A stretch of DNA of 64,000 bases, taken from assembly GCF_055900595.2 (NCBI RefSeq), contig NZ_CM148325.1. One strand, given 5' to 3'. Below the pieces are notes generated by a model that did not search any database, was not told the DNA's origin, and was given only the letters and a program-made list of their open reading frames with translations. This document shows positions 2,091 to 3,336 of this stretch, one piece after another. Each line of letters opens with the position of its first letter. Within the stretch, counting starts at the first letter, position 1. The position numbers and the translations under genes were made by a program.

Positions 2091-2700
2091 TTTTACCTCT
2101 TTTTTTACATCCCATATTAACGGGGGTGCTTTCTCGCGTTATGCCTAAAAAACATACGCGCAATTGTTATAGTGGGAGGGGAAACGGCAGGTAATGTTCA
2201 CTATCTTGCACTTTCAGACAAGTCCTTTGTAATAATCTGTTACATATAACTGAGGCGGGGAATTCAACCATTCCGGGAAATGTTATCCAGCGTTAAATTT
2301 TTCAAAAAACGTAACGGCAGATTTTTTCACTACCCTGAGAGGGGGATGATGGCTTAACGGCGATATGTTCTGCTATTTAGCGTTTTTCCTAGTGAGATAG
2401 TCCAGTTTCTGAAAAATAGCCAGTGTAATGTTTTGTAGGTCAATATTTGTTGCGTGTGTAAATTTAAATGATTTTAACCTAGTTCTTGCAATGTTTTTAC
2501 ATTGCCACAGCATCGTGATCTTGATCACGAATGAATAGAAAATTTCGCTATTAAAAAAACAATTAACCTGCATTTTTGGTTATCCGCAAACGGATTACCT
2601 GATGATAACGCTAAGCAATGGCATCATTGACGTTAAAAAGATGTTTTAAAAGAGGATAAAGAAAGGTTATCAATGGGGTAATCGGTGTTACCCCTTTTCT

Positions 2701-3336
2701 TCAGATGTCAACTTTCTCTTTGTATTCACAAAGATCTTCAATAATACAAGAGCCACAGCGAGGCTTGCGGGCAATACAGGTATAACGCCCGTGCAGGATC
2801 AACCAATGGTGGCAGTCGACTTTAAACTCTGCCGGAACCACTTTCAGTAGCTTTTCTTCTACCTGTTCGACGTTTTTCCCCGGCGCAAATTGAGTACGAT
2901 TACAAACGCGGAAAATGTGCGTGTCGACAGCAATAGTCGGCCAGCCGAATGCGGTGTTTAATACGACGTTGGCTGTTTTACGACCTACACCAGGCAGGGC
3001 TTCAAGCGCAGCACGATCTTCAGGCACCTCGCCATTATGCTGTTCCAGTAAGATACGGCAGGTTTTGATGATATTTTCTGCTTTGCTGTTATAAAGGCCA
3101 ATAGTTTTGATATAGTTTTTCACCCCTTCGACGCCCAGCTCAAGCATCGCTGCAGGCGTATTCGCTACCGGGTAAAGTTTTGCCGTCGCCTTATTAACGC
3201 TGACATCGGTGGCCTGAGCGGAAAGCAGCACGGCAATCAGCAATTCAAAAGGCGAACTGAAATTAAGCTCAGTAGTGGGATGAGGATTGTTCTCACGCAG
3301 GCGGGTGAGGATCTCCAGGCGTTTTGCTTTGTTCAT
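2701..3336 (-). CDS. nth: Endonuclease III (DNA glycosylase/AP lyase)
   Basis: 211-aa ORF with C-terminal Cys cluster (CIARKPRCGSCII); last gene of the rsx-nth cluster; overlaps rsxE stop by 1 nt. Confidence 0.95.
   Translation of the reverse strand: MNKAKRLEILTRLRENNPHPTTELNFSSPFELLIAVLLSAQATDVSVNKATAKLYPVANTPAAMLELGVEGVKNYIKTIGLYNSKAENIIKTCRILLEQHNGEVPEDRAALEALPGVGRKTANVVLNTAFGWPTIAVDTHIFRVCNRTQFAPGKNVEQVEEKLLKVVPAEFKVDCHHWLILHGRYTCIARKPRCGSCIIEDLCEYKEKVDI

Follow-up and report, generated by a model that had tools for sequence, protein, structure and literature searches.

The closest described parallel to the DNA considered here is the control region of ompF, in which OmpR sites F1 to F3 lie at -100 to -41, a distal site, F4, lies further upstream, and repression is modelled as an IHF-assisted loop. 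Two other well-known types of site bear on the comparison. Direct activation by CRP is known to need a site at about -41.5 to -92.5, the CRP site near -215 at pap being an example of a far-upstream exception, while sites for phosphorylated ArcA (ArcA-P) consist of TGTTA direct repeats with an 11-bp centre-to-centre distance; similar repeats are recognised by other regulators of the OmpR/PhoB family. The locus that we compare with these systems is the gap between nth and the peptide transporter gene dtpA (tppB) in a 64,000-nt stretch of Escherichia coli DNA (NCBI RefSeq assembly GCF_055900595.2, contig NZ_CM148325.1), which as a whole is referred to as the window. Control of this gene by OmpR is a textbook case, and its promoter repeatedly acquires adaptive mutations in starving cultures; Salmonella tppB is induced anaerobically in an Fnr-independent manner. 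In the available literature, work on its upstream DNA has so far dealt with the proximal ~200 bp. We conclude that the gap in its entirety is probably made up of cis-regulatory DNA, a short leader and a 3' hairpin of nth, and that its regulatory part would best be read, by analogy, as a fixed-geometry nucleoprotein region of the ompF type. The nth-dtpA region is a well-defined example of a complex bacterial promoter with distal sites, and not a new kind of element.

Three concordant lines of evidence place the dtpA transcription start at ~2186, only 96 nt upstream of the start codon. Firstly, the start derived from the OmpR table of a study using chromatin immunoprecipitation with exonuclease digestion (ChIP-exo), U00096.2 1710697, corresponds to window position ~2186; the same table lists the OmpR footprint at dtpA (U00096.2 1710621-1710680) as 'Act', centred at -46.5 from the start (PMC5438342). 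Secondly, the same A to T single-nucleotide polymorphism (SNP), described as 'adjacent to the -10', was found in three long-term stationary-phase cultures, with dtpA mRNA up ~23-fold (PMC7858067). Its position, nth +503 / dtpA -108, is window position 2198, where it converts the -10 hexamer from AACATT to TACATT. Thirdly, a sigma-70 matrix scan of 72 aligned orthologous gaps revealed one conserved promoter, P1 (Table 1), which scored above threshold in 92% of them. No second conserved promoter was found on either strand of the distal part in these 72 gaps, the median scores there being well below that of P1. As the three lines agree, the leader must be 96 nt long and not ~600 nt, and the long leader suggested in the preliminary description of this DNA, which was made from the letters alone, is not supported.

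Activation of P1 by OmpR bound at -40 to -77 has been published. The core site, TATGTAACAGATTATTACAA, is nearly invariant across genera and reads TGTAA-N5-TGTTA on the + strand; its tandem, 10-bp-phased half-sites (GTTACA/TGTAAC-like) abut a weak -35 hexamer, as is typical of the ompF and ompC promoters. Expression of a PdtpA(-201..+15)-lacZ fusion was strongly lowered in an ompR deletion, and dtpA was activated at low and repressed at high OmpR levels, again with a fusion that did not contain the distal part (PMC5175337). Further upstream, a GadX ChIP-exo peak has been placed at U00096.2 1710534-1710554, position -151 (PMC4918353), and YdcI has been reported to bind upstream of dtpA.

The DNA beyond these sites was compared in a set of 80 loci obtained by a DtpA scan with one genome per species, covering Escherichia, Citrobacter, Salmonella, Klebsiella, Kluyvera, Enterobacter, Kosakonia, Atlantibacter, Siccibacter and other genera. 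All identity values are to E. coli, with Escherichia excluded. The upstream neighbour is nth in all 80 scanned loci, and the gap measures 570-640 bp in ~70 of them and ~1060-1185 bp in Kosakonia and Phytobacter. Upstream of P1, blocks A, B, C, C2 and D and a CRP palindrome are conserved (Table 1), while the spacers between blocks have an identity of just 0.26-0.45. For comparison, the value at four-fold degenerate dtpA sites of these genomes is 0.58, which lies below that of the blocks (0.72-0.91) and above that of the spacers. The blocks are thus under purifying selection, and the spacers have been randomised. The conservation analysis across the Enterobacteriaceae that the preliminary description had called for therefore gave a result far from neutral (72-91% in the blocks versus 58% at four-fold sites). 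That description had also named what would speak against it, namely a single dtpA start close to the gene together with no conservation beyond neutral expectation: the single known start does lie near the gene, but conservation is well above the neutral level. Its expectation of heavy transcriptional control is supported by the OmpR, GadX and CRP sites together with five further conserved blocks at invariant spacing.

Block D reads TGTTA-N5-CGTTA on the + strand and matches the proximal OmpR site in both its 10-bp layout and its orientation. The internal spacing of block A is 26 bp in 66 of 70 loci, and the block stays with dtpA in Kosakonia. Readings of single blocks as sites for sigma-54, IHF, Lrp, TyrR or CytR, or as DnaA boxes, were tried by eye and none fitted across species.

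The distances between the blocks are conserved even where the sequence is not. Measured between sequence anchors, block C lies 74 bp from block D in 78/78 loci, block D 56 bp from the OmpR site in 79/79 and the OmpR site 43 bp from the -10 region in 78/78. Over the whole length, the 368 bp from block A to the -10 region are kept in 63 of 71 loci and deviate by no more than 2 bp in the others, and an alignment of the distal 311 nt from 24 genera required essentially one gap. This spacing is more rigid than that of the mRNA leader: between the -10-region anchor and the Shine-Dalgarno sequence, a span that includes the leader, distances of 92 to 99 occur. Free sequence at fixed length is what would be expected of a stereospecific protein-DNA assembly, and not of an RNA or a coding region.

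The same data bear on the idea that the gap is mostly AT-rich filler, be it left over from horizontal transfer or a place for H-NS to land, with only the proximal ~160 bp being functional. Such filler would account for the low GC content, for the reproduction of OmpR control by the -201..+15 fusion and for the use of the region as a 'neutral' site, the nth-ydgR gap of MG1655 having served as the chromosomal landing pad into which libraries of promoter reporters were integrated (bioRxiv 10.1101/2020.01.04.894907). However, it is already contradicted by the conservation data, since the distal blocks are 72-91% identical across genera, above the level of synonymous sites, and no indels have accumulated across 368 bp while the adjoining 130 bp vary freely. 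A CRP site at an equal distance in another family with other neighbours (see below) is likewise hard to reconcile with filler, which we consider highly improbable.

Table 1. Features of the nth-dtpA gap. Coordinates are those of the window unless another locus is named; positions are relative to the dtpA transcription start.
Feature	Coordinates	Strand	Position	Identity	Details
GC-rich hairpin	2675-2694	-			Stem 2675-2681/2688-2694; 6 nt past nth stop
AT-rich spacer, fast-evolving, variable length	2571-2674				Between nth hairpin and dtpA control region
Block A	2535-2570		-384 to -349	0.80	CAGGTTAAT-N-T7-N8-AAATTTCTAT
CRP site (palindrome)	2514-2529		-335.5	0.72	Near-consensus CGTGATCAAGATCACG; centre 2521.5; -431.5 from start codon
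Three pentamers, 11-bp spacing	2486-2512	-			TGCTG 2512-2508, TGTAA 2501-2497, TGCAA 2490-2486
Block B	2391-2434		-248 to -205	0.72	AAAACATTACACTGGCTATTTTTCAGAAACTGGACTATCTCACT
Block C	2359-2378		-192 to -173	0.86	AAATAGCAGAACATATCGCC; anchor in 80/81 loci
GadX ChIP-exo footprint with adjoining block C2	2316-2349				GadX part 2329-2349 (PMC4918353)
Block C2	2316-2331			0.76	AGTGAAAAAATCTGCC; beside GadX footprint
Block D	2279-2300		-114 to -93	0.91	AAATTTAACGCTGGATAACATT
OmpR ChIP-exo footprint	2203-2262				Supplement of PMC5438342; core tandem site TATGTAACAGATTATTACAA at 2227-2246 (-60 to -41)
OmpR / -35 / -10 region	2187-2250			0.84	
Promoter P1	2193-2221	-			-35 TTGTCT (2216-2221), 17-bp spacer, -10 AACATT (2193-2198), start ~2186
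dtpA leader	2091-2186	-			5' C-rich element, variable-sequence hairpin, conserved 3' part
5' C-rich leader element	2162-2186	-			CCGTTTCCCCTCCCA..TATAAC; invariant
Leader hairpin	2135-2160	-			Structure kept, sequence variable
Conserved 3' leader part	2091-2130	-			Shine-Dalgarno GAGG 2096-2099
66-aa open reading frame, not a gene	2373-2573	-			Start codon (ATG) retained in 5/72 loci; reading frame disrupted in 67/72
UPF0093 gene of other loci	~1833-2291 in L055				Present in L044, L046, L051, L054, L055, L058, L059, L069, L080

Next to block A, at -335.5 from the start, lies the near-consensus CRP site. Matches of at least 8/10 to the half-sites of the CRP consensus TGTGA-N6-TCACA occur at -332 to -336 in 60 of 81 loci, compared to ~1% in shuffled sequences, and several loci have 10/10. 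To judge from where it occurs, the site belongs to dtpA and not to nth. A UPF0093 gene is inserted beside nth in Kosakonia and Phytobacter, and the ~480 bp upstream of dtpA nevertheless remain collinear as a unit. In the Erwiniaceae Erwinia billingiae (L086) and Paramixta manurensis (L087), dtpA lies away from rsx-nth, its upstream neighbours being a TetR gene and a BCCT transporter; it still has an upstream gap of 505-663 bp, with 8/10 CRP-like sites at -427 and -429 from the start codon, respectively. This exact E. coli sequence, centred at NC_000913.3 1712342, appears as a 'novel' CRP site, assigned to dtpA and with an inferred in vitro dissociation constant of ~2.1 nM, in a Footprint-seq preprint of January 2026 (PMC12871828). 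The dtpA site thus resembles those of CRP-dependent promoters of classes I, II and III in being near-consensus, of nanomolar affinity in vitro, intergenic and conserved. It differs from them in lying at -335.5 from the only supported start, outside the distances of classes I and II, which are near -41.5, -61.5, -71.5, -82.5 or -92.5, and neither the sigma-70 scan nor the alignments gave a conserved promoter at class I or II distance from it on either strand.

High-affinity intergenic CRP sites are usually promoter-proximal, and the distal part (~2280-2570) might accordingly hold a transcription unit of its own, producing either a CRP-dependent small or antisense + strand RNA that ends at 2675-2700 or, from a second dtpA promoter, a leader of 300-400 nt. 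In E. coli, a hairpin followed by a T-run is indeed present on the + strand only. The hexamer TATTAA at 2549-2554, picked by eye, would put the CRP site near -40 of a + strand start at ~2561, with a weak score in the sigma-70 scan, and the scan yielded promoter-like matches that are confined to E. coli, among them a + strand -10, TACATT, that ends at 2503. Across the loci, however, neither strand has a conserved promoter signal at any distal position, a terminator configured for the + strand is present in just 2/81, and the class II -10 position of the + strand falls on the variable N8 and the invariant A7 run. TATTAA was thus rejected as part of a conserved class II CRP promoter, the hexamer position being variable and without a T at -7 elsewhere.

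Searches at the RNA level were similarly negative. RNAalifold recovered only four invariant pairs, those of the CRP palindrome, from the distal 311 nt, with a covariation term of -0.07 and no consensus structure. The E. coli gap gave only noise against Rfam at E <= 10, nothing reached the gathering thresholds in Salmonella, Klebsiella or Enterobacter, and no transcript is annotated in the gap among the E. coli genomes listed. The distal spacing is also stiffer than that of the true leader, which fits a constraint on the DNA better than one on an RNA. The unannotated small RNA raised as a possibility in the preliminary description is therefore not borne out. We hold a separate transcription unit to be unlikely; what probability it keeps is owed mainly to the E. 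coli-specific + strand T-run.

A coding function is less probable still. The candidates are the 66-aa open reading frame (ORF) at 2373-2573 and mini-ORFs such as MFCYLAFFLVR (11 codons, + strand, in blocks B/C). Both exist in E. coli, and the 11-codon ORF is equally long in E. cloacae when translated by eye. Yet the start codon and frame of the 66-aa ORF are rarely kept (Table 1), stops interrupt it in nearly all loci, E. albertii included, and it has no Pfam match. In Salmonella, the DNA block that holds the mini-ORF is conserved but its ATG has become ATC, and the conservation of the blocks shows no three-base periodicity. We agree with the preliminary description that the ORF has no recognisable features and that the gap holds no convincing coding sequence, and we give the small-protein reading next to no credence.

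On the promoter side of the CRP site is a second conserved arrangement, which on its sequence resembles an ArcA box. At least 8/10 matches to TGTTA-N6-TGTTA, often in the form of three pentamers, occur here in 66/81 loci, compared to 1.7% of shuffled sequences. The likeness to ArcA-P sites thus consists in two or three TGTTA-like pentamers at an exact 11-bp spacing beside the CRP site, and the difference lies in the E. coli copy, where the pentamers (Table 1) form a degenerate direct repeat that can also be read as the inverted repeat GCAATG-N6-CATTGC.

Taken as regulatory DNA with fixed geometry, the gap would fall into four parts, the third of them lying inside the second. The stretch 2571-2700 would be the end of the rsx-nth transcript, a tail that evolves quickly, varies in length and includes the 3' hairpin. 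The next ~385 bp (2187-2570) would be length-invariant dtpA regulatory DNA, composed of putative protein-binding blocks and fixed-length spacers of free sequence. Inside it lies the third part, P1, as an OmpR-dependent sigma-70 promoter. The fourth (2091-2186) would be the leader, in which a C-rich element and the ribosome-binding region are conserved and a hairpin is kept in structure. A distal module (-300 to -384), composed of block A, the CRP site and the ArcA-box-like repeats, would act via a stereospecific higher-order complex, in which DNA is looped or wrapped onto the OmpR-bound proximal sites. In this way carbon status, and probably redox status, would modulate an OmpR-gated peptide-transporter promoter. 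At the level of sequence comparison, the conservation of this module with fixed geometry is shown here. Looping or wrapping is the most likely long-range mechanism, as the module's distance from RNA polymerase appears to exceed that of any known class of CRP activation and as length is conserved where sequence is not. The stronger proposal, that the module is an enhancer-like, truly phase-dependent long-range element of a sigma-70 promoter, for which exact distance and helical face are required, is tentative, and we would sooner bet against it than for it.

The comparison with ompF supports such a reading by analogy. The asnS-ompF gap (L084; MG1655 986983-987584) is 602 bp long, compared to 610 bp between nth and dtpA. 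Both pairs of genes are arranged tail-to-head, a terminator hairpin follows asnS, and each downstream gene has a weak, OmpR-activated promoter with sites abutting the -35. By a count made by eye, the dtpA site at -60 to -41 agrees with F4, TGTTACGGAATATTACATTG, at 15 of 20 positions. Both regions have a distal conserved element at an equal distance, OmpR site F4 at -380 to -361 and dtpA block A at -384 to -349, and activation at low and repression at high OmpR are likewise common to both (PMC5175337). The two also differ in several respects. The distal module of dtpA has a consensus CRP site and 11-bp TGTTA repeats and no recognisable OmpR F4 site, its OmpR ChIP-exo footprint is solely proximal, and repression by excess OmpR was seen with a fusion lacking the distal part.

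Several points weigh against a fixed-geometry complex at dtpA. We attempted to recognise OmpR sites with a crude 20-bp matrix built from ompF F1-F4 and ompC C1-C3, all verified in the MG1655 sequence; it did not discriminate, the known dtpA site falling below threshold and the hits being no better than those in shuffled sequences. Kluyvera, Pseudocitrobacter and part of Kosakonia no longer have the CRP site, which must thus be dispensable in those lineages, and the E. coli copy of the ArcA-like repeat matches at only 7/10. To our knowledge, direct CRP action from -335.5 has no precedent, and we found no report in the searchable literature of an effect of crp or cya on dtpA expression. The position of the dtpA start itself comes from a table based on RegulonDB. 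Finally, the -201..+15 fusion, which ends well short of the distal module, is already OmpR-dependent (PMC5175337).

The short leader has a structure of its own. Its 5' and 3' parts are 0.86-0.88 identical to E. coli, and the hairpin between them is found in 81/81 loci with 64 distinct sequences, a median z-score of -2.5 and visible compensatory changes when each species is folded separately; the sequence that borders it on either side is invariant. RNAalifold on a MAFFT alignment missed this variable hairpin through misalignment, hence the use of per-species folding. Conserved RNA structure is limited to this short leader, and the distal part has none. Within the first 25 nt of the leader (CCGUUUCCCCUCCCA..UAUAAC, 2162-2186), two possible pairings were noticed by eye, one of CCUC with the GAGG of the Shine-Dalgarno sequence and one of UCCCA with a downstream UGGGA; covariation is uninformative for these pairings, as both partners are invariant.

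In addition, dtpA (tppB) is a reported target of the regulatory RNA GcvB. A search restricted to the R1 region of GcvB placed the best site at codons 3-12, with 43% of shuffled mRNAs giving one at least as good, and prediction of a full-length GcvB-dtpA duplex gave a meaningless result. Because these duplexes lack statistical support, no GcvB site is claimed in the leader.

At the other end of the gap, the GC-rich hairpin is the 3' hairpin, whether terminator or stabiliser, of the rsx-nth transcript. A hairpin is present in the first ~80 nt after nth in nearly all of the 81 loci, with a mean folding energy of -14 kcal/mol, while its sequence is not conserved. The preliminary description had reported a strong hairpin with a T-run, at 2666-2693, abutting the nth stop. 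The hairpin and its place beside the stop were correct; the coordinates were a few bases off (the stem is given in Table 1, and the T-run lies at 2695-2701), and its stability is unremarkable against shuffled sequences (z -1.8 on the nth strand, -1.1 on the + strand).

The T-run adjoins the hairpin on the + strand only, antisense to nth and dtpA. The nth-strand tail that follows the hairpin is AUUGAUAACC, with 3 U in 8. A U-rich tail of at least five U in the nth sense was found in 12/81 loci, and the upstream A-run, which is the + strand T-run after the hairpin, in 2/81, both of the Escherichia group. A GC-rich hairpin a few nt from the nth stop in essentially all genera is thus what the locus shares with intrinsic terminators and 3' stabilising hairpins; the difference is that the nth strand of E. 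coli is without a U-tract, the T-run being on the opposite strand. The E. coli hairpin is consequently non-canonical as a terminator and possibly a bidirectional one.

Between this hairpin and block A, the DNA evolves quickly. The identity of the nth-proximal part (2571-2700) to E. coli is 0.32 in other genera, and the distance from the nth stop to block A takes 28 distinct values from 93 to 258 bp. It is in this variable spacer that the additional gene of Kosakonia and Phytobacter sits, between nth and dtpA and divergent from the latter; it encodes a membrane protein of 141-203 aa belonging to UPF0093 (PF03653, HemJ-like). Neither the window nor the ~600-bp gaps gave any sign of a UPF0093 pseudogene in a tblastn search with the Kosakonia protein.

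With regard to its surroundings, the E. coli gap occupies 2091-2700 of the window, exactly 610 bp, and is flanked by genes on the minus strand: gstA, dtpA (588-2090, with a GTG start at 2090), nth (2701-3336, stop TCA/TGA at 2701-2703) and rsxE. The order rsxE-nth-dtpA-gstA is the same in MG1655, where nth ends at 1712158 and dtpA starts at 1712769 (the MG1655 coordinate equals 1714859 minus the window coordinate), and the 801 bases around the gap, which match strain 2016C-3878 with 100% identity, were found in 5,423 of 5,426 complete genomes. No feature is annotated in the gap in MG1655 or in the other genomes among the matches listed. Its GC content is 0.33-0.40, compared to ~0.50-0.55 for the genes on either side. 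Of the 47 intergenic gaps in 50 kb of MG1655 (1665000-1714900), no other is as long. The distal 311 bp are single-copy, with no paralogue in E. coli genomes.

The impression of a ~610-bp AT-rich non-coding gap was hence accurate, and the tttacat-type motifs pointed out with it are present at 2497-2503 and 2104-2110, with gttacat at 2239-2245. These are the complement of TGTAA/TGTTA pentamers, of which the gap holds 10, as against 4.4 +/- 2.1 in shuffled sequences.

Two further hairpins were noted nearby. In the dtpA-gstA interval, an inverted repeat seen by eye, AGCCGCTAAC-GAAAAG-TTAGCGGCT at ~541-566, is bordered by an A-run and, at its opposite end, by a short T-rich stretch, and is probably the dtpA terminator. 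A terminator scan picked out an antisense terminator-like hairpin with a T-rich tail on the + strand at 2038-2065, within the first dtpA codons, which is probably a chance match.

OmpR control and the GadX and YdcI peaks at dtpA have already been published, as, very recently, has CRP binding in vitro. In the searchable literature we came across no account of how deeply the distal blocks are conserved, of their indel-free spacing, of a CRP site at a fixed, non-canonical distance in two families or of the adjacent 11-bp repeats. The ~300 bp beyond the proximal region are under a length constraint stronger than that on the mRNA leader and hold one of the strongest among the previously undescribed E. 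coli CRP sites, placed at a distance that is both invariant and non-canonical; these two properties point to a nucleoprotein complex with fixed geometry, as at ompF.

A caveat arises for practical work. As ~385 bp of the gap are constrained in sequence and spacing, insertions at the supposedly neutral nth-ydgR landing pad may split the conserved control region of dtpA. If the long-range reading is true, dtpA would have a long-range, stereospecific promoter dependent on CRP and a response regulator and conserved across two enterobacterial families, and its distal module could be the cis element, missing for so long, through which tppB responds to carbon and, independently of Fnr, to anaerobiosis.

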